The notes under the pieces were generated by a model that saw only the letters and a program-made list of their open reading frames with translations, was not told the origin of the DNA and did not search any database. This document shows, in pieces, positions 7,605 to 62,986 of a stretch of DNA of 64,000 nt. This stretch comes from an uncultured Nitrososphaerota archaeon (lineage in GTDB: Archaea > Thermoproteota > Nitrososphaeria > Nitrososphaerales > Nitrosopumilaceae), in assembly GCA_963824385.1 (NCBI GenBank), contig CAWGPD010000003.1, forward strand, positions 1 to 64,000. The letters run 5' to 3'. Each line of letters starts with the position of its first letter. The stretch's first letter is position 1. The translations under genes were made by a program, and so were the position numbers.

Positions 7605-9108
7605 ATGCCAATTAGGACAGCTTCTGAGTATATCCAAAGTCTTAGAGGCCGTAACATGAAGGTCTACCTTTTTGGAGAACTTGTAAAAGAACCTGTAGAT
7701 CATCCGATGATTCGACCTTCAATAAATGCAGTAGCAGAGACATATGATCTTGCAGAAAAAGAAAGCGAGATTGCAAGTGCAAAATCTTCTATCACTGGTT
7801 TGCAAGTTAATAGATTCTTACATATTGCAGAAAGTGCAGACGATCTAGTAAATCAAAACAAGATGCAGCGAAAACTTGGGCAACTTACCGGAACTTGTTT
7901 TCAAAGATGTGTTGGAATGGATGCATTAAACTCGTTATATTCTGTAACTTTTGAAATTGATGAAAAATTCAAGACTGATTATCATAAACGACTAGTTGAA
8001 TTTATCAAGATGGTTCAGAGAGAGAATTTTGTCATAGGTGGTGCCATGACTGATCCAAAAGGAGATAGAAGCAAATCGCCCCATGAGCAGGAAGATCCTG
8101 ATGTATTTTTGCGTGTAGTAGAAAAAAATGACAAGGGAATATTTGTAACTGGAGCCAAGGCTCACCAGACTGGTTGTATAAACTCGCACTGGATTATAGT
8201 AATGCCCACCATGAGATTACTAGAAAAAGACAAAGACTATGCTATAGTGGGTGCAATGCCTGCTGATGCTCCTGGAATCACATACATCTACGGACGTCAG
8301 TCATGTGATACACGAAGTATGGAGGAAGGAGATATTGATTCAGGAAATTCAAAATTTGCAGGTCAAGAAGCACTAATCATTTTTGACAAAGTTTTCATTC
8401 CGTGGGACAAGGTGTTTATGTTTGGCGAATATGAATTTGCTTCAATGCTTGTAGAGAGATTTACTTGTTATCATCGACGAAGCTTATGTCTGCAAGACAG
8501 GCTTGGGTGATGTTCTAATCGGTGCAGCTGCAGCAATAGCTGATTATAACGGAGTACCTAACGTTTCTCACATTAAGGATAAACTAGTAGAGATGACTCA
8601 TCTCAATGAAACAATATATGCATCTGGTATAGCTTCTTCATTTCAGGCTCATCAAACAAAATCCGGTGTATGGCAAAATGATGAGATGCTGGCCAACGTT
8701 ACCAAACATAATGTAACTAGATTTCCATATGAAATTGGCAGACTAGCACAGGATATTGCTGGCGGTCTTGTTGTTACACTTCCATCTGAGAAAGATCTGA
8801 GAAATCCGGTTACAGGTCCAATATTAAAGAAATATCTTAGAGGACGAAAAGGTGTTGACCCCGAAGATAGATTCAGAATCCTAAGACTCATAGAAAATAT
8901 GACTTTGGGCAGAAATGCAGTAGGTTATCTTACAGAATCCATGCATGGTGCGGGTTCGCCACAAGCTCAAAGAATCAATATCGCACGTCAAATGCAGCTT
9001 GGATACAAAAAGAAACTTGCTAAAAATCTTGCAAATGTAAAAGAAAATATCGAATCAGAGCCTGAACAATCTGATTACTTTCAACGTGTATTCAAGATGA
9101 GAAAATAG
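7605..9108 (+). CDS. abfD: 4-hydroxybutyryl-CoA dehydratase; apparent +1 frameshift at 8481-8485, likely sequencing artefact
   Basis: CFQRC, MTDPKGDR, SMHGAGS; deleting one T at AGCTT restores YHRRSYVCKTGLGDVLIG. Confidence 0.93.
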
Positions 9109-9125
9109 TAAAAATTTACTTGAAC

Positions 9126-9815
9126 TTATTTTTTATCTGAATCTTTGTCTTGGATGTTCTGAGTCTTTCCAAGATTGTCATCCAAGTTGGAAAATTCTTT
9201 CGAGTCCTTTGATAAGTATGGATCACTTGACAAATTTTTCATATCTGACTTGTCTGTCAATTCGTTAGAATCTTTTGTTTGCTCTGACGTTTTATCAGAC
9301 CAATTTTCTATACTGGTCTTTGGTTTTCCAAATTGTTTTACTAACATTATTCCGACAATGACAGCTATTATGATGTAATTAATTGGGGGAGTAAGTATCC
9401 TTGTGACATAACCTATCTGAGGAATGACATATTCTACTTTTCCAATGTAATCGCCCTTTGTAATTGGATAGTCAGTTCCAGGTATTGATCCAGGATTTGC
9501 ATCTCCTTTTGTTCTGATTACCAAAGGATCTTTGTTAAGTATCTCTGCAACTCTATGAACTATCACCTTATCGTGTATGATTGGTCTATTGAATACTATG
9601 ATATCTCCAACTTTTAATTGATCAAAACTTACATGTCCTTGAACCACAATAACATCAAAGATGTTCAGATTTGGTATCATGCTTCCACTTGAGACAACAT
9701 AAAATGGATTTTCTGTTCCAAAGGCCACTCGAAGACCAATCCAAATTATTGCAATACCTATTACTACTATTACAATATCCTTGACAATGCCTGATTTAAG
9801 AGAAAGTTTACTCAA
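9126..9815 (-). CDS. Signal peptidase I (archaeal Sec11 type)
   Basis: VVSSGSM.P, IVHRV, TKGDAN motifs. Confidence 0.92.
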   Translation of the reverse strand: MSKLSLKSGIVKDIVIVVIGIAIIWIGLRVAFGTENPFYVVSSGSMIPNLNIFDVIVVQGHVSFDQLKVGDIIVFNRPIIHDKVIVHRVAEILNKDPLVIRTKGDANPGSIPGTDYPITKGDYIGKVEYVIPQIGYVTRILTPPINYIIIAVIVGIMLVKQFGKPKTSIENWSDKTSEQTKDSNELTDKSDMKNLSSDPYLSKDSKEFSNLDDNLGKTQNIQDKDSDKK

Positions 9816-9867
9816 CTGTTTCTAGTCCTTTAAAATCGTAAGATAAATCTTACTTAACAATGATTCT

Positions 9868-13104: not shown

Positions 13105-13474
13105 TTAATCTTGATTTGCACCGCATTCGGTGCAGAATTTGGCAATTGCTGATAATTTTGAGCCACACTCTGAACAGAATTTTGAGTTTGAATCAGTCTG
13201 AGTATTTACGCTACCATAAAGACCACCGATTGATTTCATAGACTCCTGTTGGTACAAACTTGTCATCATCTACTAAGGGAGTTGGAGCAAAATCTTTCTC
13301 TTCTACAAAATTCATAATTCTAGGCATCTGCTGTCCAGGATTTTTTGGATCAGGTACCATATCGCCTAACCAAAATGCAAATCTAGTTAATGTAAGCTCA
13401 GGTGTGGAAAAAGTCAATGTATGACTTGACATGTAATCATCAGCTGCTGTCTTACCGTTGAATACTTTCATCAT
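13105..13474 (-). CDS. Zinc-ribbon domain protein; apparent +1 frameshift at 13240-13244
   Basis: Removing one base (AGACT to AGCT) extends the ORF through TGAMKSIGGLYG into FCSECG...FCTECGANQD*. Confidence 0.8.
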
Positions 13475-13515: not shown

Positions 13516-15438
13516 TTATGGACAACCGTTACACCCATTAGTAATAGCACCTGCAAAACTGGCTCCATTGATATTTGCACCTTTGAGATTGGCATCTGAG
13601 AGATCAACACCTGAGAAAACAATGCCATTAAGATTGGCACCGGCCAAGTTTACTCCTTTCAAATTGGCTCCTTGAAGTACAGCTTCAGTCAAATCTACAT
13701 CTTGGAGATTGGCATTGGAAAGATTAATTCCCTGCATGTTGGCTCCGGACAAATTGGCTCCTTGTAGATTAGCACCAGATAGGTTGATGTTTTGCATATT
13801 ATCACCTGAAAGATTTGCCCCCTTTAGGTCTGAAGTTGATAATACTGTGATACTAGTCTGATTAGATGTACTGGCATAAAAGTTGGGAGCGCCAGAATAC
13901 GATGCATGGATATGGTGTAAACCTACTGGCAATGAAGATGTACTAAAGGTAGATTGACCTCCAAAAATTGTTACTGGTCTTCCAGACTGTATATCATCAA
14001 TGTAGAATTGTACTGCACCAATGTTAGGTGTTGGTGATATTGTCGCAGTAAATGTTGCTACCAGACCAGATATCATAGAAGAAGAACTTGACGTTATTGA
14101 TGTAGTTGTTGATACTACTGGAGGCGTAAATGTTATCGAAGAACCAGGTGATATGGGAGAACTTGGTATTGTATTGTTTGACATTGGTTTTAAACATGGA
14201 ACTAAAATGGCCCAACCATGGGGAACTTCACCAACATAGCACTGGTATTTACCTGATGGATCATAAAGTTCTGTAACATATTTCCAGTTTTTATCAGCAG
14301 AGGACGATATGAAAAATCCAGAAGCAATATTTGAAACAACAATTATCATTACGACAAAAAAAATCAATCTAAAAAGTAGTGATTTTTTCTTGTCAAACTG
14401 TCTAACAACAAGTATGAATGAAAATATAATTGCAAATGATATGAATCTCTCTGCCATTCCTCCTCTGACTATTGCAGACCAAAACAATGTCGCAGTTATG
14501 CAATATAGAACAAAAATTTCAAATTTTACTCCGTTTCTAACAGAATTTAATAAAACAAATGTAATTACCCCAATTGGTATGATATACGTCCACTCTCCCA
14601 AATGTTGGAAAATGTTGTAATAGAAAACCTTGATTGCACTTGTGGAAAATTGCTGAACTGTTGATCTAACGATATCTGTACTAACCTGAACAATGGGAGA
14701 CTTGAATTGTTGAGAATAATTTGTATATAGAATTAATGTTTGTAATAATAGTAGACTTGTTGGTATTACACAACTAATTATTGTAATTAATTCTTGCTTG
14801 TTTTTTCTAATCTCGCGAATTATGACATAAATTAATGCAGGTAGAAAAACAATGGAAAAAGCAGAAGACAGAAATGATGCGGAACAGAAAAATGCATAGA
14901 GATACTTTTTTTTCTTGGATTGTTTTTGATACTCTTCATATCTGAATAACAATAATAGTGTAAATAGCATTGTGAATATGTTCAAAAACCACTGGATACT
15001 TGAAATGTTTGAATAAACTTCACTCATGCCTGGAGCTGCTATGATAAATAAAGAACAAAGAGCTCGCAGCATATCGTTTTTTATTATAAATCTAAATTGT
15101 TTGGCAGAAAAAAATACCGCACAAAGTGTTGCAATAATTATTGCTGCAATATTCATTGCTAGGTTGACATTGGCAATGCCAAACAAGTACAGGGAGAAAA
15201 TTGTTACAAGTCTTGGAATAAAATGCAAGTAAAAGTTGTAAACAACAAAAATACTTGCCCATGAATACTGGACAGCTTCTCTTAATAGAACATCCACATC
15301 TTCAACCCTACCAGGTTGAACCAACACAAAGATTGGTTTTCTTAAAATGAAAAGTATTATGCCTGAGAAGAATAGAATAGGTAAAAACCATCTGGACTCT
15401 ATATTACCAGAAAAAATTGTACGTATTTTACCACTCAA
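13516..15438 (-). CDS. Polytopic membrane protein (GT-C/GtrII-like) fused to an Ig-like domain and pentapeptide repeats
   Basis: About 11 TM segments with RVED and YLHFIPRL in the first loop; Ig-like segment (VQFYID, LPVGLHHIHASYSG); C-terminal A(N/D)LXX repeats. Confidence 0.75.
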   Translation of the reverse strand: MSGKIRTIFSGNIESRWFLPILFFSGIILFILRKPIFVLVQPGRVEDVDVLLREAVQYSWASIFVVYNFYLHFIPRLVTIFSLYLFGIANVNLAMNIAAIIIATLCAVFFSAKQFRFIIKNDMLRALCSLFIIAAPGMSEVYSNISSIQWFLNIFTMLFTLLLLFRYEEYQKQSKKKKYLYAFFCSASFLSSAFSIVFLPALIYVIIREIRKNKQELITIISCVIPTSLLLLQTLILYTNYSQQFKSPIVQVSTDIVRSTVQQFSTSAIKVFYYNIFQHLGEWTYIIPIGVITFVLLNSVRNGVKFEIFVLYCITATLFWSAIVRGGMAERFISFAIIFSFILVVRQFDKKKSLLFRLIFFVVMIIVVSNIASGFFISSSADKNWKYVTELYDPSGKYQCYVGEVPHGWAILVPCLKPMSNNTIPSSPISPGSSITFTPPVVSTTTSITSSSSSMISGLVATFTATISPTPNIGAVQFYIDDIQSGRPVTIFGGQSTFSTSSLPVGLHHIHASYSGAPNFYASTSNQTSITVLSTSDLKGANLSGDNMQNINLSGANLQGANLSGANMQGINLSNANLQDVDLTEAVLQGANLKGVNLAGANLNGIVFSGVDLSDANLKGANINGASFAGAITNGCNGCP

Positions 15439-15638
15439 ATTAACTGAGTTCTGATAGATCCACCCTTAAGCTTATCGAATATTCTATGACACTTTTCCAA
15501 TTTTTTATTTTGATTTTTTTAATTATTCACATATTTATTAAGTGTCAAGTTTGATGGATTCATCCTTTTGATTCATATTTCAAATGATCTCTTGATTAAA
15601 GAAAAAAATAATTAATACCCAAGTTTGGAATCAAAAGT

Positions 15639-16712
15639 ATGTCAAGAGAGAATCTGAAAGATTCAATATCACCAAAAATTACAATCTCGTGTCTGCTGTT
15701 AATTTGTGCGTTGTTTCTAGTATGTAATTATCTGCCAGTAGCAAATGCGTCTGAAACATATTCTTATCTGACTCAATGGGGATCTTATGGCCAAAATGAT
15801 AGTCAGTTTAACACAATTGGAGGTATAGCGACTGATTCCATAGGCAACGTATACGTAGTTGACACCAACAACAATAGAATTCAAAAGTTTACCTCTGATG
15901 GCAAATTCATAACTACATGGGGCTCGTATGGAAAAGCTAACGGAGAATTTAACGTACCAACTAGTATTGCTACTGATTCTTCAGGTAATGTGTATGTGAC
16001 GGATCAGTTCAATAACAGGATTGAAAAATTTGATAGTAACGGAAATTTTCTCACCGAGTTTGTTTTTAGCTCATTCTTTCCATGGGGCATAGCTGTTGAT
16101 AATACAAATAATGTGTATGTTTCAGATGCAAGCAAACATGTGATTTTAAAAATTGGTCCAGATGGCCAGCTTGTTACAACGTGGGGATTTCTCGGAAAAG
16201 CAGATGGCCAATTAGATACACCAAGAGGTGTTGCTATAGATTCGTCAGATAATGTGTATGTAGCAGATCAGGGAAACGACCGTATTCAAAAATTTTCAAG
16301 TGATGGCATATTCATAGCAAAGTGGGGAACCACTGGAAATGAAAATGGACAATTTAGCTCACCATTTGGTTTAGCAATCGATTCAAATGACAATCTGTAT
16401 GTAACTGATCTTAATAATGATAGAATTCAAAAGTTTACGTCTGATGGCAAGTTCATCACTTCATGGGGTCATTACGGTCAATCTAATGGAACTTTTGTTT
16501 ATCCAGATGGTATTTCGATAGGTACATCTGGGAATGTCTATGTAATAGACCAGTCAAGCAACCAAAATATTCAAGTCTTTTCAAACCAAAATTCTACAAC
16601 GTCATCAGTAATTGATGAAAAAAATTCCATTCCAGAATTTAGTTCAGCTGTCTACGTGATAGTTATTATTGGCATGTTAAGCACAATCATAATTCACAGA
16701 AAATTTCTTTGA
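15639..16712 (+). CDS. Secreted NHL-repeat beta-propeller with PEF-type C-terminal sorting signal
   Basis: Signal peptide; six F..P.GIA.DS.GNVYV.D..N.RIQKF repeats; IPEF + TM + basic tail. Confidence 0.9.
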   Translation: MSRENLKDSISPKITISCLLLICALFLVCNYLPVANASETYSYLTQWGSYGQNDSQFNTIGGIATDSIGNVYVVDTNNNRIQKFTSDGKFITTWGSYGKANGEFNVPTSIATDSSGNVYVTDQFNNRIEKFDSNGNFLTEFVFSSFFPWGIAVDNTNNVYVSDASKHVILKIGPDGQLVTTWGFLGKADGQLDTPRGVAIDSSDNVYVADQGNDRIQKFSSDGIFIAKWGTTGNENGQFSSPFGLAIDSNDNLYVTDLNNDRIQKFTSDGKFITSWGHYGQSNGTFVYPDGISIGTSGNVYVIDQSSNQNIQVFSNQNSTTSSVIDEKNSIPEFSSAVYVIVIIGMLSTIIIHRKFL

Positions 16713-19995: not shown

Positions 19996-20163
19996 TTACG
20001 TATACCATTTAATCCAGTTGTATTTTCTTATCTTAGCCTCTGGATAACCACAACTACCACATCTTTTGTGTCTTACATGATAAGAATTCTTTCCACATCT
20101 TCTACATCTGATGTGTACGTGCTTTCGTGTAAAGCCTCCCATTGAGGTAGTACCCTTAGTCAT
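19996..20163 (-). CDS. rpl37e: 50S ribosomal protein L37e (below ORF-track cutoff)
   Basis: MTKGTTSMG...[11 protein letters not shown].....CGSCGYP...RKYNW. Confidence 0.96.
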
Positions 20164-20170
20164 AATTCAC

Positions 20171-20401: not shown

Positions 20402-20461
20402 CTATTTCACTTATTACACACTCTATGGAGGGTATATATTAAAATTTCATTGGTGTAATCT

Positions 20462-21175: not shown

Positions 21176-22029
21176 CTAGATCTCTTGGATTTCACATGTA
21201 CCTTGCCCCAATATACTTCTAATCTTCCATCTAGGTGCATTTTTACAGCTTCTAAAAGTGTTGCAGCTTCTAACTTCTGACCCTTCTTTTTCAAGGATTC
21301 TAGAGTTTCATTCTCATCAATGGCAAAAGCATCTTGAAAAATAATGGGGCCTTGATTTAGATCTTCAGTTACATAATGTGAAGTACATCCAACAATTTTT
21401 GCACCGCGTTCATAAGCTTGAACATAAGCAAATGCACCTGGAAACGCAGGTAAAAGTGATGGATGTATGTTAATAATTCTATTAGGGTATCTCCATACAA
21501 AGTTAGGAGAAAGTATTCGCATGTATCTTGCAAGTACTATTAGATCAACATCGAATTTTTTTATGACGGAAATTATTTTTTCTTCTGCCTCTGACTGGTC
21601 TTTTTCATCTACTAAGATAAATGGAATTTTTTCCTTTCTTGCAATGGATGATAAACTATTTTCTGTGCCTATTAGCACTACAATTTCTCCTCTGATCTTA
21701 CCTTTTGCTCTTGCATCAAGAATAGCTTGCAGACAGTGAGGTTCTTTTGTTACAAATACTGCAACCCTTTTTCTTTTTGATACTTCATAATGAATATTAA
21801 CTTCCATCTTGAGTTTTTTTGCCAAGTTCTCTGCTTCTTTATTGAATTTTACAAAGTCCATCTTATTAACAAAAGATGCTTCCAAATACATTCCAAAAAG
21901 TCCCTTGACAACATTTTGGTTAATCTTCTCTATGTTACCATTATTTTGAAAAATGAAATTAGTAAAACCTGCTACTACACCTTCATGGTCTTTTCCAACT
22001 ACAACAAGTTCTACAATTGTCTTATTCAT
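21172..22029 (-). CDS. purU: Formyltetrahydrofolate deformylase
   Basis: N-terminal ACT domain; LARYMRIL, INIHPSLLP, GPII. Confidence 0.93.
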   Translation of the reverse strand: MNKTIVELVVVGKDHEGVVAGFTNFIFQNNGNIEKINQNVVKGLFGMYLEASFVNKMDFVKFNKEAENLAKKLKMEVNIHYEVSKRKRVAVFVTKEPHCLQAILDARAKGKIRGEIVVLIGTENSLSSIARKEKIPFILVDEKDQSEAEEKIISVIKKFDVDLIVLARYMRILSPNFVWRYPNRIINIHPSLLPAFPGAFAYVQAYERGAKIVGCTSHYVTEDLNQGPIIFQDAFAIDENETLESLKKKGQKLEAATLLEAVKMHLDGRLEVYWGKVHVKSKRSR

Positions 22030-22374: not shown

Positions 22375-22375
22375 G

Positions 22376-22460: not shown

Positions 22461-22506
22461 ATGCACCATGACTTTTAAGACAAATTTATCTATTGTTGAT
22501 GGTCGT

Positions 22507-23853
22507 ATGGCAAAATTATTTGGAACAAATGGTGTGAGGGGGATATTTGGAGAAGGTCTTACCCTTGAGTTTATCTCTGAAATTACTCTATCACTTGCAA
22601 CTCTTTTCAAAAAGGGACCGATTTTAGTAGGTTATGATGGACGGGAATCTAGCATTATTATATCAAAAATAGTAACAGCTGCATTAAGCTCGGCTGGTTT
22701 GGATTCTACAGTTTGCGGTTTGGTTCCTACACCTTGTCTGCAATTTGCTACAAAACATCTTGGATACAATGGAGGAATTATGATAACTGCATCTCATAAT
22801 CCACCACAATATAACGGAATAAAGGTCACTGCAAGAGATGGAATTGAGATCTCAAGAGAAGATGAACTCAAGGTAGAAGAATTCTATTTTAAGAAAAAAT
22901 GGAAAATTTCAAATAAATTTGGTTCAATTAAAAATGAGTCAAAAACTATAGGGGCGTATATTTCTGGAATTAAAAAACAAGTAAACATAAAAAAAATTAA
23001 ATCAAGAAATCTCAAAGTGGTACTAGATCTTGGTAATGGTGCCCAAGCAGTAACAACTCCTATCTTATGTAAAGATCTAGGATGCAAAGTAATTTTAATT
23101 AATGAAAAAATAGATGGAACTTTTCCAGGGAGAGGTTCAGAGCCTACACCTCAAAACCTAGATAAACTCTCAAGTATGGTAGTTAAAACAAAAGCTGATT
23201 TTGGAATAGCATTTGATGGGGATGGGGATAGAAGTATTTTTTGTGATGAGAAAGGAAAAATTCTTACAGGTGACAGATCCGCATTGCTTTTATCAAAATA
23301 TATTTTAGAAAAATATCATAAATCCAAGATAATTACTTCAGTTAATTCTACATCTGTGATAGAAAAAATAGCATCAAATTCTGGCTCTAAAGTTTTTAGA
23401 ACTAAAGTTGGTAGTGTTGAGGTTTCACGTAAGATGATGCAAGAAAATGCATTGATTGGTTTTGAAGAAAATGGTGGCTTCATGTATGGTAGACATAATC
23501 AAGTAAGAGATGGTTCTATGACTATGGCCATATTGATTGATCTCCTGGCAAATACCACAAACTCTTTGTCAGAAGAAATGGATAAACTACCTCCATCGTT
23601 TACAACAAAAGGGAAAATAGAGTGTTCAAAAGATAATTTTAAAAAAATACTTGAAATTCTAAAAGCAGAACCTTACAAAAAAGATCTTATTGATGGAATT
23701 AAATTATTTCTAGATGAATCGAGCTGGATTATGGTAAGATTGAGTGGTACTGAACCAATAGCTAGAATCTATGCTGAATCCTCTTCCCAATCTAGATTGG
23801 ATGATATTTTTGCAAAATACTTGAAAAAAGTTAAGACTGCAGCTGACAGATAA
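22507..23853 (+). CDS. glmM: Phosphoglucosamine/phosphomannomutase family
   Basis: LFGTNGVRG, ITASHNP, DGDGDR, GFEENGG, R.SGTEP; ATG 22507. Confidence 0.9.
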   Translation: MAKLFGTNGVRGIFGEGLTLEFISEITLSLATLFKKGPILVGYDGRESSIIISKIVTAALSSAGLDSTVCGLVPTPCLQFATKHLGYNGGIMITASHNPPQYNGIKVTARDGIEISREDELKVEEFYFKKKWKISNKFGSIKNESKTIGAYISGIKKQVNIKKIKSRNLKVVLDLGNGAQAVTTPILCKDLGCKVILINEKIDGTFPGRGSEPTPQNLDKLSSMVVKTKADFGIAFDGDGDRSIFCDEKGKILTGDRSALLLSKYILEKYHKSKIITSVNSTSVIEKIASNSGSKVFRTKVGSVEVSRKMMQENALIGFEENGGFMYGRHNQVRDGSMTMAILIDLLANTTNSLSEEMDKLPPSFTTKGKIECSKDNFKKILEILKAEPYKKDLIDGIKLFLDESSWIMVRLSGTEPIARIYAESSSQSRLDDIFAKYLKKVKTAADR

Positions 23854-25122: not shown

Positions 25123-26908
25123 TTGCAAATACGACAGCCTATAGTCGCAGTTCTAGGTCACGTAGACTCTGGTAAAACATCTCTTTTAGATAAGATTAGA
25201 GGTACGGGTGTACAAGCAAGAGAAGCTGGTGGAATTACACAACACATAGGTGCAAGTTTTCTTCCTACTGAAACTTTAAAGAAAGTTTGTGGACCTCTTT
25301 TTGCAAAAATGGGAGGCGCAAATCAGGAAATTCCAGGTTTACTTGTTATTGATACGCCTGGACATGAAATATTTACAAATCTTAGAGCAAGAGGAGGCTC
25401 TGCTGCAGATATTGCAATTCTTGTTGTGGATGTAAACCGAGGATTTCAACCACAAACTAATGAAAGTCTCAAAATCTTACAGGCCAGAAAAGTTCCATTT
25501 GTGATAGACTTTGAATAAAGTGGATATGGTTTCTGGATGGAAAAAAAATCCTACAACAAAGTTTATCACACAATCTGTTAAGGAACAAGATCCATTTGTA
25601 CAGACTGCACTTGATGAGTTATTGTATAATGTAGTGGGCACATTATCTGTTCTAGGATACAACTCGGAGGCATTTTACAGAGTAAAAGATTTCTTAAAAG
25701 AAGTTGCAATAGTCCCAGTTAGTGCAAGAAGTGGAGAAGGTATGCCAGAATTACTTGCAGTATTGGTAGGACTAACACAACAATACATGCAAAAAAAATT
25801 GGAACAGACTGAAAAACCAACAAGGGGAATAGTTCTTGAGGTAAAAGAAGAGATCGGTCTTGGCATGACTGCTAACATTATCCTAATTGACGGTACTCTA
25901 AGAAAGGGTGACTCTATACTAGTTGCCAAGAGGGATTCTGTAATAATCACAAAACCAAAAGCAATACTCCTTCCAAAACCTCTTGATGAGATGCGTGATC
26001 CTAGAGATAAATTCAGACCTGTAACTGAAGTAGATGCAGCTGCTGGGATAAAAATTGCATCACCAGATTTAGAGGGAGTACTTCCAGGTAGTCCTGTATA
26101 TGCAACTACTGATGAATCAAAGATTGAAGAATTTAAAAAGTTAATCGAGTCTGAGATGAAATCAGTATTTATCAAAACTGATACAAAAGGAGTAATTCTG
26201 AAATGTGATACAATAGGATCTCTTGAGGCATTAACTGAAATGTTAAAAAAACAAAATGTGACCATATCGATGGCAGACATAGGGCCAGTTACAAGGCGAG
26301 ATGTAATGGAAGCGCTTGCCGTAAAAGAACGTGATAGACATTTAGGTGTAGTAATAGCATTTAATGTAAAAATTTTACAAGATGCACAAGAAGAAGCAGA
26401 ATCTAACCATATCAAGATTTTTCATGATCAGGTAATCTATAGTCTGATTGATAATTATACTAATTGGGTTCAAGATGATACTGCAAATGCAGAAAATGCT
26501 ATTTTTCAAGAACTTACACCTGTTTCTAAATTTACATTTCTTAAAGGTTATGTATTCAGAAAAAATAATCCTGCAGTTTTTGGAGTACAAGTAGATGCAG
26601 GTGTTCTAAAACAAAAAGTATCTGTTATGAATAAATCTGGTAGAAAAGTTGGTACGATACATCAGTTACAAGATAACGGAAAGAATGTTGATGTTGCAAA
26701 AAAAGGTCAGGAGGTTGCAGTTTCAATTCAAAATGTAACAGTAGGTAGACAAATATCTGAAGAGGAAGTTTTCTATTCTTTTCCACCATCTCCAGAAGCA
26801 AAATTGTTACTAAAGACATTCTCTCACAAGTTAAGTTCTGAAGAATTTCAAGTCCTACGAGAAATAATTGAAATTCAGAGAAAGGTCAATCCACTTTATG
26901 CTTATTAG
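25123..26908 (+). CDS. infB: Translation initiation factor aIF5B/IF-2; apparent +1 frameshift at 25506-25510
   Basis: GHVDSGKT, GGITQHIG, DTPGHE; AGACT to AGCT restores VIALNKVD (G4 motif). Confidence 0.95.
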
Positions 26909-29842: not shown

Positions 29843-30289
29843 GTGCCTATAGATCCAAACTTTCCAGCAAACCATAAAGTGATTGAAAAATTTAAAGATC
29901 CATTAAGTGAAAACTATCATCTGGTTTGGGGTCCTGGACGTCTTGCTGAAGCTGCATCAGATCCTAAAGTAAAATCTGACTCGGAAGCTTCAGGTGAGGC
30001 GATAAAACCAATAGGAATTCATGGTACATTTGTAGCAGTAGACTGGGATTCGTGTATTGCTGATGGTGTCTGTTTGTTAAGTTGTCCCGTTAAGGTTTTT
30101 GAATGGTACAAAAATCCTGGTGAAACAGGAAGAAATGACAGAAAAGATTACACCGACAAAGCAAATCCGGTAAAAGAAGCAGATTGTATTTGGTGTATGG
30201 CTTGCGTTGAAGTTTGTCCCACCAAGGCAATCAAAGTCGATCAGTTAAATCAAGATATTCATGAAACAGAGATTGCAAAACTTGCCTAG
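29843..30289 (+). CDS. Dicluster ferredoxin (zinc-ferredoxin-like N-extension), copy 1
   Basis: CIADGVC...CP and [12 protein letters not shown]. Confidence 0.92.
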   Translation: MPIDPNFPANHKVIEKFKDPLSENYHLVWGPGRLAEAASDPKVKSDSEASGEAIKPIGIHGTFVAVDWDSCIADGVCLLSCPVKVFEWYKNPGETGRNDRKDYTDKANPVKEADCIWCMACVEVCPTKAIKVDQLNQDIHETEIAKLA

Positions 30290-34901: not shown

Positions 34902-37022
34902 AAATAGAGCAGTTAGACATTCCTTCCTCTGCAATTGAATTTCTGCAAAAAAATGGATATGTAAATCTGTATCCTCCTCAAGAAAAAACAATCAAAGCTG
35001 GATTGCTTGAAAGAAAAAGTATCTTAGTCTCTGCTCCAACTGCAAGTGGTAAGACATTGCTTGCAATGCTTGCTATAATAAAACATCTTTCTGAAAAAAA
35101 AGGCAAGATTGTATATCTTAGTCCTCTAAAGGCACTAGCATCTGAAAAATTTAATGAATTTAAAAAACTTGAATCTGTTGACCTTGGAAAGGATTTAAAA
35201 ATTCAAATATCAACTGGGGATTTTGACATATCTGACAAAAGTCTTGGTCAAAATGACATTCTTGTGTTAACTAATGAAAAAATGGATTCTATCATAAGAC
35301 AAGGTGCAGAATGGATAGATGAAATAAGTCTTGTAATTGCTGATGAAGTTCATTTGTTGGGTGATGATGATAGAGGTCCCACCCTTGAAATTGTGCTTAC
35401 GAAACTAAAATTATTGCCACAAAAACCCCAGATACTGGCTCTTAGTGCTACTGTTACTAACGCTGACGAAATCTCTGACTGGTTAGAATGTACACTTGTA
35501 CATAGTGAATGGAGACCAGTTCCTTTGTCAGAAGGAGTGTATGATCAAGGTGTAGTAACCATGCAAGACAGAAAAAAATTTGAAATTGAAACAAGTATAA
35601 GAGGTCCACCAGTTGACTTGGGATTAGATTCGCTAAAGAATGGAGGTCAAGCCATTTTGTTTGCAGAAACAAGAACTCGTTCAGTATCGCTTGCTACAAA
35701 GGCATCAGAAGCAGTATACAGGACTCTAAACACTGATGAAAAAGAATCATTAGAAAAAATCTCACAAAAAATTCTAAATGATAATGAACAAACTGAACTT
35801 GTCAAGACCTTGGCAACTCTAGTTAAAAATGGAGTAGCATTTCACCATGCCGGTCTTAATCAGAACTGCAGAGATCTAATCGAGTCTGAATTTAGAAATA
35901 AAAGAATAAAAATTCTAGCATCCACTCCCACCTTGGCTGCAGGAGTGAATCTTCCTGCAAGAAGAGTAGTTGTTGCTAATGTGACTAGATTTGATGCAAA
36001 GTATGGGGCTAACAAACCAATTAGCATACTTGAATACAAGCAGCTATGTGGTCGTGCAGGTAGACCACAATATGATGAATATGGGGAGGCAATCATCGTT
36101 GCTAACTCAAATAGTGAAGAAATTTTTGATTATTACATAAATGGAATTCCGGAACCAATTTCTTCAAAGCTTACTGGAGACAAGGCATTAAGGATACATC
36201 TTCTTAGGCTTTGTATCTACCAGTCCTGGTATCAAAGGAGAGGATATAGTAGAATTTTTTTCAAAGACACTTTCAGGTTCTCAAGAACGAAAGACTACAA
36301 TAAAATTTCATGTTCAAATTACTCTGAGATATCTTGAATCTGAAGAACTTGTAAAACAAAAAGGAAACAGGTATATCGCAACAGAATTTGGTAAAAAAAC
36401 TTCTACATTGTATATTGATCCTCTAACTGCAGTTCTATTTAGAAAATCAATTGAAAAAATTTCAAAAAAAGAACATACGCTTGGTTTGTTACATATAATT
36501 ACTAGCTCTGAAGATTTTTTCCCAAAGTTTTCACTGAGAAATAAAGATTATGAACTTGTAGGTACTTTGATTGAAAATTATGCTGATCAATTAATTGAAA
36601 ATATTTCAGAATATGATTGTAATCGAAGTCTTCTTGCAATACATGCTTGGATTAATGAATCCAGTGAAATATTTCTCTCTGATAACTTTGGTATCGAATC
36701 TGGTGATATGCATAGAATATCTGAAAGTGCAGACTGGCTTGTTCATGCACTTTATGAGATTGCAAAACTAGAGAAAAAAGATGAAATCCTCGATGAAATT
36801 GATACTTTGAGGTCCAGAATTACATATGGAATCAAAAAAGAGCTTGTTGATTTGGTACGTGTAAAAGGAATTGGACGAGTTAGAGCCAGAATACTCTTCA
36901 AAAATGGCATAAAAACTACAGAGGATCTAAATGAAATCACTACTGAAAAACTTGCAAAATTAGACAAGATAGGGCCAATTATCGCAGAAAACATAAAGAC
37001 ACACCTGAAAAAGATAAGATAA
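34898..37022 (+). CDS. hel308: Hel308/Ski2-like DNA helicase; apparent +1 frameshift at 36206-36210
   Basis: APTASGKT, DEVH, SAT, HHAG, GRAGR; AGGCT to AGCT opens the frame through ATEFG..TS.LYIDP into the HhH domain. Confidence 0.92.
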
Positions 37023-38008
37023 TGCTGGATAGAACAATCGCAGGAATACTGATCTCAACAATAGCATTTGTTACTGTTTATGCAATTACTCCTGGTCTGA
37101 TTAATACTCTTACAAAGAGAAACATGGTTGTAAAAGATTATAATAAAGAGGTTGCAACAACGGTCGCTCGCCCTGGAGGACCTTCAATACTTGCAGGAAT
37201 TTTGGCTTCTGAATTTGTACTCTACACATTCTTTCCTTCTACAGCAATATTGGCAATTATAATTACAACTTCACTTGCTTTTCTTGTAGGTTTTGCCGAT
37301 GACAGAAAAGTCCTTAGTGGATGGTTCAAACCTTTAGCTCTTGCGGGAACTGCAATACCTATAATTTTACTTGGTGTATATTATCCACATCTTGCATTTC
37401 CATTGTTTGGTTCAGTGCATATACCCGAACTCTATTTAGCGTTGATAATTTTTATGATTTCTATAACAGGAAATGCAATAAACTCTATTGATGTGCTCAA
37501 TGGTGTTGCAAGTGGATTTATGACAATTGCAAGTTTTGCACTTACAATTTGTCTTGTCATTGTACATAATTATGATATTGCACTAGCAAGTTTACCTCTA
37601 GGATTTGTCTCTCTTGCATTTTACAAATATCATAAAGTTCCAAGTAGAATATTTCCTGGAGATTCTGGAGTTATAACTATGGGAGCAATGTTTGGTACAT
37701 TAGCTATTGTTGGTCATGTTGAAGTTATTGCAGCAGTTGCATTACTTCCTGCTGTGATAAACTCTTTTCTATTTCTCTCAAGTGTGAAAAGAGTAATTGA
37801 ACATAGGCAGATTAAAGCAAAGCCTGTAGTTCATACAGAAGACTTCAGACTAATGGCAAGTGATGATAAATCAGCACCAGTAACTCTTGTTAGATTGATT
37901 TTAGCAAATGGACCTATGACTGAAAAGCAAGTGGGATTTGTAATTTTTAAACTAGCCTTTTTCTCTGCAGCATTGGCAATCATTACAGCTTTTATGATGA
38001 GGGCCTAA
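37022..38008 (+). CDS. UDP-GlcNAc:dolichyl-phosphate GlcNAc-1-P transferase (MraY/GT4 family)
   Basis: GFADD, NAINSIDVLNG, IFPGDSG. Confidence 0.9.
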   Translation: MLDRTIAGILISTIAFVTVYAITPGLINTLTKRNMVVKDYNKEVATTVARPGGPSILAGILASEFVLYTFFPSTAILAIIITTSLAFLVGFADDRKVLSGWFKPLALAGTAIPIILLGVYYPHLAFPLFGSVHIPELYLALIIFMISITGNAINSIDVLNGVASGFMTIASFALTICLVIVHNYDIALASLPLGFVSLAFYKYHKVPSRIFPGDSGVITMGAMFGTLAIVGHVEVIAAVALLPAVINSFLFLSSVKRVIEHRQIKAKPVVHTEDFRLMASDDKSAPVTLVRLILANGPMTEKQVGFVIFKLAFFSAALAIITAFMMRA

Positions 38009-38011
38009 AAT

Positions 38012-38245
38012 ATGAAAGCAAAACCTGTCTACATCTACATTTTGCTAATGTGGACACTGATTATTGCTGGAGGAGGATTGCTTGTCCTAATTGTAGAACA
38101 TATTTCAATACATGGATTTGGAGCGTTTGATCATATACTGGATTCAATTGTAAAAGCAGCTATTGCAATGATACTAGTGGTGCTTTGGGTTTTGTTAATG
38201 TCAAAAATAAAGAACTGGATTTTCCAAAAAGAAATGAGTCACTAG
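38012..38245 (+). CDS. Small two-TM membrane protein
   Basis: Two hydrophobic helices, operonic spacing. Confidence 0.7.
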
Positions 38246-38720
38246 CCTCTCTTCCCAGTTCTTCTTCTTCTTGTCATATTCTTCTCTTGAATACTTGACT
38301 TTTGCTGGAACTCCAACTACAACACAATTGGGTGGAACATCCTTTGTTACCACTGCACCCATTGCTACCACACTATTCTTACCTATTCTAACTCCTGCCT
38401 TAATTACTGCCTTGGAACCTATGACAGACTCCATCTTCTATGGTAACTCCTATCATCTTTTTACTGGCAGGATATGGATCATTGGTTAGTGCTGCAGCCG
38501 GACCAATGAAAACATTTTTTCCAATTATGGAAAGAGGTGGTATGTAAACAAGTCCCTCTATCATAGTATTTTCTCCTATCTTTACATTGTAATCTACATG
38601 TGCAAGAGAACCAATCTTGACATTATCCCCAATCTCTGCATTATCTCCTACATAAGCAAAATGCCATATCCTTACATTTTTCCCAAGTTTTGCTTTTTCA
38701 GAAATGAAATTTGTTACCAT
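38242..38720 (-). CDS. Hexapeptide-repeat (left-handed beta-helix) N-acetyltransferase; frameshift at 38426-38430, possibly a second at 38244-38248
   Basis: IG.NV.IG repeats, [16 protein letters not shown]....GVPAK; AGCT repair gives IEDGAVIGS. Confidence 0.88.
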
Positions 38721-50137: not shown

Positions 50138-50236
50138 ATGACAAAACGTCATAGTTGTGTATAATTTAGTCTTTTACAAAATTTTTTGAAGAAAAGAAAG
50201 ACTTTAAACTCATATTTTCTTCCACAATATTTTAAC

Positions 50237-54198: not shown

Positions 54199-55747
54199 AT
54201 GCATTCTGAAAAGATTAAGAATTTTTTACATAAAAGACGACAGGCAGAACAGAGTGGTGGAGAAGAAAGAGTTCAGGCTCAACATGATAAAGGCAAGCTA
54301 ACTGCAAGAGAACGAATTGACCTGCTTCTCGATGAAGGAAGTTTTCATGAAATCGATGCAATGACAACTCATCATTACTATGAATTTGATATGCAGGACA
54401 AAAAATTCTTTGGAGATGGAGTTGTTACAGGATATGGAACTATACACGGAAAACAAGTTTTTCTTTTTGCTTATGATTTTACAGTTCTTGGTGGAACACT
54501 TAGTGAGATGGGTGCCAAGAAAATTACAAAAATTATGGAGCATGCTACAAATGTTGGTTCTCCAATTATTGGAATAGCTGATTCAGGGGGAGCAAGAATT
54601 CAAGAAGGAATTCTAAGTCTTGATGGTTTTGCAAATATATTTTATCATAATCAACTTGCATCTGGAGTAGTTCCTCAAATTACCATTAGTGTGGGACCAT
54701 CCGCAGGAGGTGCAGTATATTCACCTGCAATGACAGATTTTGTAATAATGGCTGATAAGATTGCGACAATGTTTGTAACAGGTCCAGAGGTTGTCAAGAC
54801 AGTCCTTGGAGAAGATGTATCTTTTGATGAGCTTGGCGGTGCAATGTCACATGGAAAGAATAGTGGTGTTGCCCACTTTGTTGCAAAGAATGAATATCAG
54901 TGCATGGATATTGTCAAGACTCTCTTATCATATCTTCCTCAAAATAGCACAGAAGAACCACCAATTGTAGAAACTGGTGATGATCCAAACAGACTAGACA
55001 ATAATCTCATAAACATAATTCCAGAAAACCCTCTACAACCATATGATATGAAAGAAATCATTAGTTCTATAGTTGACAATCACATATTCTTTGAGATACA
55101 TGAATTATTTGCACCAAATGTCGTAATTGGATTTGCTAGACTACATGGAAGGACAATTGGAATTGTTGCAAACCAACCAATGGTACTTGCAGGTGCTTTG
55201 GATATTGACTCATCAAACAAGGCAGCAAGATTCATCCGATTCTGTGACTGCTATAGTATTCCAATTATTACTCTAGTAGATACTCCTGGGTATATGCCTG
55301 GGACACAACAGGAACATGCTGGAATCATCCGTCACGGAAGTAAACTCTTGTATGCATACTGTGAGGCTACAGTTCCAAAGATAACACTAATCATTGGAAA
55401 AGCCTACGGTGGAGCCTACATCGCAATGTCTAGCAAGAATTTAGGAACAGACATGAATTATGCTTGGCCAACTGCACAGATAGTCTGTACTAGGTTCTGA
55501 AGCAGCGGTACGGATAATGAACAGAAAAGAACTTGATGCTGCAAAAGATTCTGCTGCATTAAAAAAACAACTTGTAGATAATTTCACTGAAAAATTTGCA
55601 AACCCCTACGTAGCTGCATCTTATGGTACTATTGATTCAGTTATTGATCCTGCTGAAACCCGACCTGCACTAATACGAGCCTTGGATGCTTTAGCAAATA
55701 AAAGAGAGAGAAGAATTCCACGAAAGCATGGGAACATTAATCTTTAG
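54199..55747 (+). CDS. pccB: Acetyl/propionyl-CoA carboxylase carboxyltransferase subunit; apparent +1 frameshift at 55482-55486
   Basis: GKLTARERI, SGGARIQEG, DTPGY, AYGGAY; AGTCT to AGCT restores WPTAQIAVLGSE; ends KHGNINL. Confidence 0.94.
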
Positions 55748-58865: not shown

Positions 58866-59393
58866 ATGCTAAAAGAACTATTTAATCAAGATACTGCACC
58901 ACATGCAACTAATGTTTTAATTGGAAAGCTTGGCGATGTATTAATCAAAGCAGTTGGAAAACCATTTGACATGGCAATAAACTGGGGCAGAATTTACTCT
59001 TTATGGCCAGTCCATCTTGAGACAGCATGTTGTAGTGTAGAATTTGGAGCTGCATCTAGTCCTCGTTATGACGTTGAAAGATTTGGTATCATAGAAGCAT
59101 TTGGTTCTCTCAGACAATGTGATCTTATTGTTGTCATGGGAACAATTACCAGAAAGATGGCTCCTAGATTAAGAATGGTATATGATCAGATGCCTGATCC
59201 AAAATATGTCATAGCAATGGGGGCATGTGCAATTACTGGAGGATTATACTTTGACTCGTATAACGTACTACCAGGAATCGATGGGGTTCTTCCCGTTGAT
59301 GTTTATGTTCCAGGTTGTCCACCTCGACCAGAAACACTAATCCAAGGATGTATGTTACTTCAAGAAAAAATAAAACGGATGAAGGCTAAATAG
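58866..59393 (+). CDS. nuoB: Complex I subunit B
   Basis: ACCSVE, MGACA, VPGCPPRPE. Confidence 0.97.
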   Translation: MLKELFNQDTAPHATNVLIGKLGDVLIKAVGKPFDMAINWGRIYSLWPVHLETACCSVEFGAASSPRYDVERFGIIEAFGSLRQCDLIVVMGTITRKMAPRLRMVYDQMPDPKYVIAMGACAITGGLYFDSYNVLPGIDGVLPVDVYVPGCPPRPETLIQGCMLLQEKIKRMKAK

Positions 59394-59395
59394 CC

Positions 59396-60052
59396 ATGAG
59401 CTCTGGAACTGAAGAGGGCGAAGTTAAAGATACTGCTGAAGAGCATACTGATGAAAATACATCAAGTTCAGATTCCATGTCAAAAGAGGAGGCAAAGAAA
59501 TTTTATGAAGAAAAAGGACTTGACTTATCTCCAGACGTTCCTGTTAAACCAAAACCTATTCCTGAATTTGAAAAGTCTTTAGCAGATAAAATTTCTTCAA
59601 AATTTGGCGATAAGATACACGTAGACTATATACGATCTGATAGAATTAGGGTAACTACTAAAAGAGAAGACATTGTAGATGTCGCTAAATTTATTCGAGA
59701 TGAACTAAAGTACGATCATGCAGAATCCGTATCTGGAGTTGACTATCCTGATGCACGTGAAATCGAAGTTGTATATCACTTGGGATCTTATACTGATGAA
59801 AGACTCGGACGCCAAATTTTTGCACTTGCAACTAGAGTTCCAAGAGAAGATGTTCCAAATCCAGGTTCAGATGGAACCAGAATGTCATCATTACGTGATG
59901 TATTCTATAGTGTAGAGTTTCACGAAAGAGAATGTTTTGAAATGTTTGGTGTTTATTTTGAAGGTCATCCTGATATGCGAAGATTACTCCTCCCAGAAGA
60001 TTGGGCAGATATACCGCCTTTTAGAAAAGATTTCAAGATAAAGGGACGATAA
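59396..60052 (+). CDS. nuoC: Complex I subunit C
   Basis: GVDY, ERE.FEMFG..F.GHP, P.RKDF. Confidence 0.94.
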   Translation: MSSGTEEGEVKDTAEEHTDENTSSSDSMSKEEAKKFYEEKGLDLSPDVPVKPKPIPEFEKSLADKISSKFGDKIHVDYIRSDRIRVTTKREDIVDVAKFIRDELKYDHAESVSGVDYPDAREIEVVYHLGSYTDERLGRQIFALATRVPREDVPNPGSDGTRMSSLRDVFYSVEFHERECFEMFGVYFEGHPDMRRLLLPEDWADIPPFRKDFKIKGR

Positions 60053-60054
60053 AA

Positions 60055-61188
60055 ATGACAACACAACTACCTCCGGGAATGCATATTGAGACCGTGGACG
60101 AAAAAATAATGACGCTCAATGTTGGACCTCAACATCCAGGTTCTGGACATATGAGATTAATTATCAAAGTTGACGGTGATTACATTGTTTCATGTGATCC
60201 TGATCCAGGTTATGTACATCGAGGAGAAGAAAAAATGGCCGAATACAGAAATTATATTCAAAATATTCCTCACCTTGAAAGACCTGTAATCCACGACTCT
60301 TCTAATATCTTGTATCCGTATTGTCTTGGAGTAGAAGAATTATTGGGAATTGAAGTTCCAGAGAGAGCAAAATACATCCGAGTCATTGCAGCAGAACTGA
60401 ATCGTTGTATCTATATTTTATACTGGTTGGCAATCTATGGAATATTCTTAGGTCACTCTACCATGTTTATGTGGCCTGCAGGTGATAGAGAACTTTTCAT
60501 TGATCTTTTAGAAGCAATGTCTGGTGCAAGAGTAACTCATGCATATCTAGTACCTGGAGGAGTACGAAATGATTTACCATCTAACTTTGAAGAGCGATGT
60601 TTAAGACAAGTTGCATATTTTGAAAAGAGACTAAAAGAGTATGAGGCTATTTTTTATCAGAATCCTCTCTTGAAAGCAAGAACAGAAGGTAGTGGAATAT
60701 TATCAAGAACAGATGCTATCAGACTTGGAACAACTGGTTCAGTACTGCGAGCATCTGGTGTTGATTTTGATGTAAGAAAAAAAGAACCATATGATGTTTA
60801 TGAAAATCTAGACTTTCAAACAATAGTGATGAAAGAGGGTGATTCCTATGCACGTTCCCGTATACCTTATCTTGAGATGTTTGAGAGTTGCAGAATAATT
60901 AAGGACGCATTAAAAAAGATGCCAAAGTCAGGCTCTGTGCGTACAAAATTAAAACCAAATCCAAAAGGTGGTAACGATGAAGTTTATCGTAGAGTAGAGT
61001 CTGGTAGAGGAGCAATTGGATATTACATTGTGTCTAACAACCGACCTGAACCTTATAGAGTAAAAATAAGCGTTGGATCATTTAGAAACTTGATCTGTAT
61101 GCCGTATTTGTTAAAGGGAGAAAAATTAGGTAACATGCCAGCAGTCTACTGGGGTCTTAATTATTGGCCTGTGGAGGCAGATCGATAA
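60055..61188 (+). CDS. nuoD: Complex I subunit D
   Basis: NVGPQHP, GYVHRG.EK, E.DR terminus. Confidence 0.96.
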   Translation: MTTQLPPGMHIETVDEKIMTLNVGPQHPGSGHMRLIIKVDGDYIVSCDPDPGYVHRGEEKMAEYRNYIQNIPHLERPVIHDSSNILYPYCLGVEELLGIEVPERAKYIRVIAAELNRCIYILYWLAIYGIFLGHSTMFMWPAGDRELFIDLLEAMSGARVTHAYLVPGGVRNDLPSNFEERCLRQVAYFEKRLKEYEAIFYQNPLLKARTEGSGILSRTDAIRLGTTGSVLRASGVDFDVRKKEPYDVYENLDFQTIVMKEGDSYARSRIPYLEMFESCRIIKDALKKMPKSGSVRTKLKPNPKGGNDEVYRRVESGRGAIGYYIVSNNRPEPYRVKISVGSFRNLICMPYLLKGEKLGNMPAVYWGLNYWPVEADR

Positions 61189-62491
61189 ATGTCTACTATC
61201 GCACCGCAGTTTAGATTCAGTAGATTCATTGCATCTCTATTTGATTTAATATTTTGGGTACTTCTGATCTTCAGTCTAGTTGGATTGCCCATAGTCTTTG
61301 TTATACTGTTTTACATCAAGCTTCCAATAATCAACGGTCAACTCATGACCCCATATCTTTCAATTACCTGGATTGCTGACCCATCACGTACTCTTCCAAT
61401 TGTCAAAAATTTCATTCATACAACTATCTTCAGAGTGATGGTATTTCCCGGATTTGGATTTGCTGCTTTACTTGCAGCTGCAACAATATTTGTAGAAAGA
61501 AAGTTTCTTGCAAAAATACAGCTCAGAGTAGGTCCACTTTATTGTGGAAAAATAGAAGGAATTCTACAACTGATGGGTGATGGTTTTAAGCTAATGAGTA
61601 AAGAGATCATAATACCTGCAAAAGCAGACAAACCAATTTTCTGGATGGGTCCATTATTGTTTGTAGGTGCAGCAGGTGCCTTTGTTTCTCTGATTCCAGT
61701 TGCTCCTGGATGGGTAGTTGCAAATCCTTCCGTTGGTCTTTTAGCAGTATTTGCAATCATAGGTTTCTTTCCAATAATTGCTGTACTCACAGCATGGGCA
61801 GCAAATAGCAAATGGACATTCATTGGTGGTCTTAGAGCACTTCATCAAATGGTTGCTTTTGAAATTCCATTAATTTTGTCACTTCTTGGAGTAGTGATAC
61901 TCTCTGGAAGTCTAAATCTTTCGCAAATTGTTGAATCACAACAACACTTTTGGTGGATTACTTTTGTACCGATTGGCGCAATAGTCTTTTTCATTACAAT
62001 CTTTGCAGAACTTGAAAGAATTCCATTTGATCTTCCAGAAGCAGAAAGTGAAATTGTTGCAGGATGGTTAACAGAGTTCTCTGGAATGATGTATGGATTA
62101 ATTCAGCTTGGAACTTATCTAAAATTATATGCATTTGCCGGATTGTTTGTTGTATTATTCCTTGGTGGTTGGAACGGTCCTATGGTTTGGCCACCCTTCC
62201 CACAAGATATCATAACTAATGGAATTACAATTGGTCCTGTAACTGCTAAAATCCCTGGATTGCCGCTCTTTGATCAACAAATGCTTAATGGCACACTGTG
62301 GTTTGTGATAAAGACTGTAGGAGTTATACTCTTGATTCTACTACCTCGTGGAGTTTTCCCAAGAGTTAGAATGGATATAGCATTACACACTGGTTGGTAC
62401 AAACTAATCGGTCTTGCTTTCATTAACATCTTTATAGACTCTCGGATTGCTATACGCAGGTGTCTTGGGACCTGGAGGATTGTTACAATGA
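61189..62491 (+). CDS. nuoH: Complex I subunit H; frameshift at 62436-62440 creates a false fusion to nuoI
   Basis: ERK...Q.RVGP, PFDLPEAESE; repair gives FIALGLLYAGVLGPGGLLQ* with an ATGA overlap to nuoI. Confidence 0.93.
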
Positions 62492-62986
62492 GTAATGTTA
62501 TCGGAATAATCCGCGCATTAAATTCCGGAGTTAAACATCTTGCAGTAAAGAGATTCACATTACGATATCCTGAGCAGAAATTAAAATTTGTAGGTGATGG
62601 ATTTCAATTCAATCCGGAGACCGGAGTGGGAATAGCTGGATTAAGAGGTCGACACATATTGTTCCATGAACATTGTACTGGTTGTCAGACTTTGTTCTGT
62701 AGCATGTGAGGGAATAGCAGAGGCCATAAGTATGGTCAAGATAGCTGAAACGTGGAAACATAACAAGAAAGCAATAATGCCACAGATTGATTATGGTAAA
62801 TGTGTATTCTGTGGACTATGCGTAGATGCTTGTCCGTTTTATGCACTATACATGACAAATGACTATGAGCTTTCTTCGTTTACCAAATCTGCTCTTATTT
62901 ACACCCCTGCTCAGCTTGCTATCAAACCAAATATTTCACAAGATGTTGAAATAAAAATAAGTGACAGGGGTGCTTCACATGGTTGA
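62488..62986 (+). CDS. nuoI: Complex I subunit I; frameshift at 62687-62691
   Basis: TLRYPE; repair restores CTGCQLCSVAC; second motif CVFCGLCVDACP. Confidence 0.93.

Follow-up and report, generated by a model that had tools for sequence, protein, structure and literature searches.

Consensus errors bound to short methylation motifs have been described for nanopore sequencing and are lost after amplification or retraining (PMC6591954, PMC10687267, PMC11610573); the motifs given there are Dcm CCWGG (PMC6591954) and, in Listeria, GCAGC and GCTGG (PMC10687267). In Thaumarchaeota, the motifs AGCT and GATC are reported as methylated by a pair of orphan enzymes. The accessible text on a Nitrosoarchaeum genome gives 96% N4-methylcytosine (m4C) at AGCT and 98% N6-methyladenine (m6A) at GATC with two orphan enzymes (PMC6329791), and the supplement of PMC8919816 gives AGCT m4C at 88% and 98% in two marine Thaumarchaeota genomes, in line with the reported occurrence of this mark in marine Nitrosopumilaceae on which a preliminary description of the present DNA had leaned. 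The table of PMC11033074, as far as its rows are available, lists the same AGCT/GATC pair for Nitrosomarinus catalina and 'Thaumarchaeota archaeon MY3'; its thaumarchaeal pairs include M.NspBD3I/II, M.Nca01I/II and M.TarMY3I/II. We analysed here a window of 64,000 nucleotides (G000:C3:1-64000, that is, contig CAWGPD010000003.1 of assembly GCA_963824385.1, hereafter G000) in which conserved genes are broken by single extra bases at AGCT.

The breaks resemble nanopore modification errors in that they recur at a short motif, survive the consensus and are absent from other data of the organism. They differ by the motif, which is AGCT with GATC in second place, AGCT being absent from the main text of PMC10687267 and PMC11610573, and by their nature, since many are gene-breaking single-base insertions whereas the available parts of those two papers describe mismatches. 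With the Thaumarchaeota orphan pair, G000 shares both motifs, one beta-class and one Dam-family enzyme, and the lack of a nuclease beside the beta-class gene. In contrast to that pair, Nitrosotalea is not among the accessible rows of the PMC11033074 table and the methylation of G000 is one that we infer; moreover, the beta-class enzyme of G000 is a 279-residue protein with an SPPY motif, in a clade shared with Nitrososphaeraceae-type genomes, whereas the marine clade is a 258-residue DPPF enzyme. A soil long-read catalogue from nanopore data (PMC12313526) describes a coding density that is low chiefly among its archaeal genomes, long homopolymers being named as the cause. Broken genes in archaeal, low-GC long-read assemblies are common to both cases, but the loss falls at long homopolymers there and at a methylation motif here, and we claim no link of G000 to that catalogue. 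Programmed frameshifting or slippage differs from the present case, in which the break is not conserved in relatives, is absent from public runs at four sites and adjoins homopolymers of at most 3. Both this class of artefact and AGCT methylation in the group are already published; what is new is the pointer to Nitrosotalea. The literature search found nothing on AGCT nanopore errors in archaea or on methylation in Nitrosotalea or Nitrosocosmicus, and subscription papers, bioRxiv supplements and REBASE, which lay beyond it, may hold such reports; the main text of PMC4752239 gave 0 hits for AGCT in Nitrosopumilus.

G000 is an assembly of 1.68 Mb in 5 contigs (up to 700 kb) and is 86% complete. 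Its host is a soil Nitrosotalea-type ammonia-oxidising archaeon and not a marine form, because a methyltransferase encoded on contig C4 has 89-90% identity to proteins named Nitrosotalea, contig C3 carries a gene which we take to be amoA-like, and the public runs best holding G000 sequence are labelled soil metagenome or metagenome. The window was aligned with up to 12 relatives, and the counts given per site refer to the relatives covering that site. The complete relative G014 served as reference for orthologue lengths and for the genome-wide comparison of genes. Window positions 19001-39000 (20 of the 64 kb) were also compared with contigs of X1, X3, X5 and X8, four of the 21 listed runs, which come from three studies; X14-X21, whose word shares are small, play no part in the comparison.

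All eight five-letter words named by the preliminary description were found at their positions, and each carries a net excess of one base against every relative covering it. After removal of a single base by script, open frames matching the length of the G014 orthologue were obtained at 8481, 13240, 36206, 55482 and 62436, and the motifs NKVD, WPTAQIAV, YHRRSYVCK and CTGCQLCSVAC came back; the assertion that such repairs restore frames and invariant motifs was therefore upheld. The longest homopolymer adjoining the eight sites has 3 bases, as expected from the statement that none sits in a long one. By chance, taking out one base at random would yield an AGCT spanning the junction at 0.94% of positions. 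The breaks are almost certainly sequencing-assembly errors, the genes being intact in the living organism, and the words "assembly error" in the following rows are to be taken at that strength.

8481..8485, forward strand: extra base at AGCT in a gene of the HpaB fold (presumably abfD), assembly error; one base more than 5/5 relatives, the repaired frame of 500 residues matching.
13240..13244, reverse strand: extra base inside AGCT in a conserved gene of 134-138 residues, assembly error; 5/5 relatives, 85% to the full-length G014 orthologue.
25506..25510, forward strand: extra base inside AGCT in the gene of translation initiation factor IF-2, assembly error; 5/5 relatives, 4/4 runs at full depth, repaired frame of 596 residues.
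36206..36210, forward strand: extra base inside AGCT in a Hel308-type helicase gene, assembly error; 5/5 relatives, 3/3 covering runs.
38244..38248, reverse strand: extra base inside AGCT where a hexapeptide acyltransferase gene has its stop codon, assembly error; 6/6 relatives, 4/4 runs.
38426..38430, reverse strand: extra base inside AGCT within that same acyltransferase gene, assembly error; 6/6 relatives, 4/4 runs.
50199..50203, no strand: extra base inside AGCT (AGACT) in non-coding DNA, absent from the earlier list; 6/6 relatives, no open reading frame of at least 80 residues.
55482..55486, forward strand: extra base inside AGCT in an acyl-CoA carboxylase carboxyltransferase gene, assembly error; 10/10 relatives, WPTAQIAV back.
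62436..62440, forward strand: extra base inside AGCT in nuoH, assembly error; 8/8 relatives, 433 residues after repair and 433 in G014.
62687..62691, forward strand: extra base inside AGCT in nuoI, assembly error; 7/7 relatives, iron-sulfur motif back.
281..287, reverse strand: an extra base probably lies right next to AGCT, within a small conserved gene; protein level only, at a place beyond the reach of close relatives and runs.

When 38244 and 38426 are repaired together, an acyltransferase of 158 residues is obtained, the same as in G014. The first of these two positions had been put forward as one of three possible extra cases, and it stands. The case at 281-286 is supported at the protein level, the best single-base removal at 285-287 raising the score from 186 to 253 against a protein 51% identical. 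The third, 32132, was rejected as an error site, no indel (insertion or deletion) being found against the relatives and no gap in runs X1 and X3. The gene labels of the preliminary description fared unevenly. Both halves of IF-2 and of the helicase match their families, and family matches back six labels (IF-2, Hel308-type helicase, NuoH, NuoI, carboxyltransferase and hexapeptide acyltransferase). A family search with the product of the 'zinc-ribbon gene' at 13240 gave no match, and abfD, for the gene at 8481 with an HpaB-family match only, and pccB, for that at 55482, are presumptive names.

Over the 20 kb compared with the runs, the only indels listed are omissions of one base in the run contigs at 25508, 36207, 38246 and 38428. 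X1, X3 and X5 show all four at full depth, and X8 shows the three that fall within its coverage. The claim that the extra bases would be missing from other data of the same organism was thus borne out at the four AGCT indel sites covered. X1 departs further from G000 by exactly 10 substituted bases, which form 9 events: AGCT is restored in X1 by 6 of them, GATC by 1 and AGCGCT by 2. All told, 13/13 differences between X1 and G000 lie in motifs (10 AGCT, 1 GATC, 2 AGCGCT), and the 4/4 indels and 9/9 substitution events are read otherwise in both X1 and X3. By contrast, of the 30 strain-type differences listed that neither X1 nor X3 shows, 1 makes AGCT. Expressed per site, an error is carried in this segment by 10/60 AGCT, 1/72 GATC, 2/4 AGCGCT and 0/7 other GCGC. 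The substitution errors, none of which is assigned to a strand, are the following.

21354..21357: substitution error in GATC; 3/3 covering runs.
23055..23058: substitution error in AGCT; X1, X3 and X5 read AGCT.
23585..23588: substitution error in AGCT; X1 and X3 read AGCT, X5 is without this change.
30080..30083: substitution error in AGCT; 4/4 runs.
36719..36722: substitution error in AGCT; 4/4 runs, the depth in X5 being half.
37438..37443: substitution error in AGCGCT, a possible third motif; 4/4 runs.
37669..37672: substitution error in AGCT; 4/4 runs.
37848..37851: two-base substitution error in AGCT; 3/3 covering runs.
38488..38493: substitution error in AGCGCT, a possible third motif; 4/4 runs.

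AGCGCT is a possible third modified motif or the sign of a relaxed specificity, and relaxation in the SPPY enzyme may explain why it is hit while other GCGC sites are spared; a dedicated AGCGCT enzyme was not found in G000, at its 86% completeness.

Some other differences are not errors of G000. At 22504 and 38000 the window departs from the relatives but agrees with X1, so that genuine variation between strains is seen there. G003, G017 and G024 share the event at 27835, which lies on the side of G014. In X3, a contig of low depth (3.4) joins 24366 back to 21571 via a short spacer, around the phosphoglucosamine mutase gene; a repeat or a chimera may account for it, or else a different strain.

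The pattern extends over the whole genome. All 1820 open reading frames called in G014 were aligned to G000; 1231 of them, amounting to 1.02 Mb, passed the thresholds of 200 bases and 70% identity, and in-frame clusters as well as clusters near alignment ends were dropped before counting. These 1231 genes contain 333 frame-shifting events, of which 244 are net +1 and 55 net -1. When four-letter words were ranked, AGCT came first among the +1 events (143/244, with 20.7 expected) and again among the -1 events (38/55, with 17.6 expected), which confirms the predicted genome-wide enrichment of indels at AGCT over other words of that length. By a stricter classing, AGCT is spanned by 146/244 of the +1 events, where 23.3 would be expected, and adjoined by a further 23, where 5.1 would be, giving 169/244 at or beside AGCT, about 69% (28 expected); for the -1 events, 38/55 span AGCT (19.9 expected). 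Among the other 75 +1 events, GATC is spanned by 35 (8.8 expected, p 7e-14) and adjoined by 5, GCGC is spanned by 1, and the remaining 34 are of other kinds, some of the latter being G014-side differences or misalignments. The statement that all frameshifts fall on AGCT thus held in the window and not genome-wide, where GATC is a second motif. GCGC and AGCGCT found no support as a third indel motif, with 1/75 and 0/75 of the residual +1 events, the case for it coming from the two substitutions only.

None of the 5 contigs is free of events, the density ranging from 2.7 to 7.4 per 10 kb; 274 of the 1231 aligned genes are hit, and errors are also present in non-coding DNA. An indel is found at about 7% of AGCT sites. 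Neither the letter inserted nor its position is constant from site to site, and no gene-strand bias was detected (47 vs 57, p 0.38). Word counts over the whole genome, a blunt test, showed no AGCT deficit (observed/expected 1.01).

G000 contains a single beta-class N4C/N6A methyltransferase gene, intact, at G000:C4:401980-402828 (L011), and the proposal that the methyltransferase is encoded outside the window therefore agrees with the genome. It is an open frame of 279 residues matching PF01555 (E 1e-42) and carrying SPPY and FVGSG (FxGxG) as motifs IV and I; it is conserved at 76-96% across Nitrosotalea-type genomes. No restriction nuclease gene adjoins it, and the gene order is kept in relatives, the neighbours being presumably an Alba-like gene and genes of the aromatic amino acid pathway. 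On C3, the amoA-like gene is closely followed on its downstream side by a Dam-family gene (G000:C3:101618-102485, L014), which is split in two. Its second half matches TIGR00571 with 205.7 bits (cut-off 114.85), and the best single-base repair, which falls at AGCT, yields a frame of 302 residues; identity to the G014 orthologue is 76-84%. The GATC errors suggest that this gene is active. A second PF01555 match, on C2, was rejected as a DNA enzyme, being a TIGR01177/Trm14-like tRNA methyltransferase, and the sole N6_Mtase match in G000 is likewise a tRNA-methyltransferase-like gene. No C5 methyltransferase, Eco57I-type enzyme or DndC was matched in the 86% complete G000. Searches of the PDB and the Atlas with the C4 enzyme returned generic beta-class relatives only and no specificity. 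Because the C4 enzyme is not an orthologue of the marine one, its link to AGCT was made by exclusion, and on this reasoning from gene content it is probably the AGCT enzyme.

G014 has extra methyltransferase genes without counterpart in G000. One encodes a second SPPY paralogue, with 49% to the first, and close to it lie genes of the DPPF type and of the C5 type. They are found at:

L110:11012-14836: extra methyltransferase genes of G014.
L111:2457-3377: extra methyltransferase genes of G014.

Taken together, the absence of the extra bases from the runs, the genome-wide enrichment and the methyltransferase outside the window support the earlier proposal of modification-caused consensus errors, and a base modification very probably lies behind the errors. 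The account in full, scarcely less probable, runs as follows. G000 would have been built from long reads of native DNA, of nanopore type to judge from the 5 contigs of up to 700 kb and from the error pattern. The cell would methylate AGCT on both strands, as N4-methylcytosine like its relatives, and GATC as N6-methyladenine. The base-caller would misread the disturbed signal alike in many reads, and the consensus would then keep the error at a fraction of the sites. By exclusion, AGCT would be methylated by the orphan beta-class SPPY enzyme of C4, and GATC by the product of the Dam-family gene of C3.

A number of observations weigh against this account. Both the modification of AGCT and GATC and the nanopore platform, which is off record, are things that we infer. 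X1 and X3 may be the source sample of G000, X5 and X8 not being so marked; the run sequences are contigs, in which rare variants are lost; and the run comparison covers 3/8 of the named sites (25506, 36206 and 38426) together with 38244. X1 is presumably Illumina data, from what we take to be adaptor-like loose ends, and the library types of the runs are off record. Among the +1 events, 40/244 span neither motif and are not beside AGCT. When the asymmetry of substitutions was assessed against G014, AGCT did not stand out (z 0.9, a value confounded by composition), and substitutions in the window against five close relatives and G014 affected AGCT in 7/40 against a background of 8.9%, AGCT not being among the top words in this underpowered count. 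G000, being 86% complete, could hide another enzyme, and its C4 enzyme is 26-28% identical, and not orthologous, to the enzyme conserved in marine Nitrosopumilus-type genomes. Finally, the errors described in the accessible part of PMC10687267 are mismatches, not indels.

Could AGCT be a sequence context at which the base-caller or the polisher is weak, independently of any modification? This idea gains from the 2/9 substitution events at AGCGCT, for which a dedicated enzyme was not found, and from a weak imbalance between the two orientations relative to the contig strand (64 vs 40, p 0.02). Nevertheless, the two enriched motifs are the exact pair methylated in related archaea, G000 holds one fitting enzyme type for each, and published consensus errors track methylation motifs and drop after amplification, so that we regard such a weakness as improbable. 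Slightly less probable again is that AGCT bears a different modification (5-methylcytosine, phosphorothioate or some bulkier mark) or owes its mark to a different enzyme, the genes responsible lying in the portion of the genome that G000 lacks. The 86% completeness, the lack of orthology between the beta-class enzyme and the marine one, and the unexplained AGCGCT errors speak for it, as does an archaeal AGCT 5-methylcytosine enzyme predicted in the available rows of the PMC11033074 table. It is opposed by the absence of C5, Eco57I-type or DndC matches in G000, where the N6_Mtase match is tRNA-methyltransferase-like, by the conservation of the SPPY gene in Nitrosotalea-type genomes at a locus common to Nitrososphaeraceae-type genomes, and by the fact that m4C is the mark reported at AGCT in this group.

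That the extra bases are real, the genes being rescued by recoding or editing at AGCT or being true pseudogenes, deserves practically no credence. It draws on the clustering at one motif alone and on the five of eight named sites that lie outside the run comparison. The bases are absent from all covering runs at 4 sites, where this reading is thereby refuted, and from all covering relatives at 8; their letter and place vary; and 274/1231 genes, without gene-strand bias, would need rescue. Site-specific recoding, which the preliminary description had thought much less likely, is excluded because the extra bases are absent from runs and relatives, because insertions, deletions and substitutions are mixed at the same word, and because one case is non-coding. 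The errors are thus best attributed to methylation of AGCT and GATC in native DNA.

The same footprint was found in other assemblies. In G015 (4 contigs; 252 kb of 1.7 Mb aligned), 16/18 +1 events are AGCT-like, with 1.8 expected, many of the insertions lying directly beside AGCT, and in G024 the figure is 3/4. Both are Nitrosotalea assemblies. Nine other relatives gave 0 AGCT-like events in 213 kb aligned. The footprint is a property of certain assemblies, not of the lineage.

Comparison of the methyltransferases across the order revealed two clades. The SPPY enzyme and the marine 258-residue DPPF enzyme share 26-28% identity and occupy different loci, and no DPPF match was obtained in G000 at E 1e-40; the marine DPPF clade would be the published AGCT enzyme. 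Nitrosocosmicus and genomes of the Nitrososphaeraceae type have orthologues of the C4 enzyme with ~50% identity, and there too the gene belongs to that cluster of aromatic amino acid genes. Among 151 genomes drawn evenly from the order, with matches accepted at E 1e-45 or better for SPPY and E 1e-40 or better for DPPF, 48 genomes have SPPY, 54 DPPF, 1 both and 50 neither, where 17 with both would be expected if the two were independent, kin not being independent. The family of G000 is divided without overlap or gap, its 32 other genomes comprising 7 with SPPY and 25 with DPPF, and in family f15 SPPY is found in 29/31 and DPPF in 0.

Loci were compared in G164, G146 and G095 (L301, L302 and L304). 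In G164 the gene that follows tatA is of the DPPF type; in G146 an SPPY-type gene takes this place, although the proteins encoded around it are 95-99% identical between the two genomes. The SPPY-type gene of G146 has a greater length, and a weak DndB-like (DGQHR) match comes next to it (L302:918-1973); an island may have brought it into G146. Since the clades almost never co-occur and one occupies the locus of the other, the comparison suggests that one clade displaced the other. Functional equivalence of the SPPY and DPPF enzymes is our working hypothesis, and we give even chances to the broader idea that AGCT methylation is kept across ammonia-oxidising archaea by these two interchangeable, non-orthologous orphan enzymes.

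Two further features of the window may be mentioned. At 13516-16712, genes for a pentapeptide-repeat/Ig-like protein and an NHL-repeat protein occupy a stretch that is missing or rearranged in several close relatives. At about 58866-59396, a complex I stretch of 531 bases has a 97% identical second copy at G000:C1:42860-43390.

For users of the data, the result is a warning on quality: about 22% of the aligned genes (274/1231) are falsely frameshifted in a species-representative assembly, which extrapolates to roughly 500 genome-wide, with essential genes and the Dam gene among them. The gene content and pseudogene counts of G000 are wrong, and its 86% completeness probably is too. For the organism, the errors are indirect evidence that acid-soil Nitrosotalea share the methylation of AGCT and GATC with their kin from the sea and from fresh water. 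The mutually exclusive clades offer a testable lead on why ammonia-oxidising archaea keep the AGCT mark; if the two enzymes are indeed interchangeable, the mark and not the gene would be under selection, which would point to an essential cell-cycle or regulatory role for AGm4CT.

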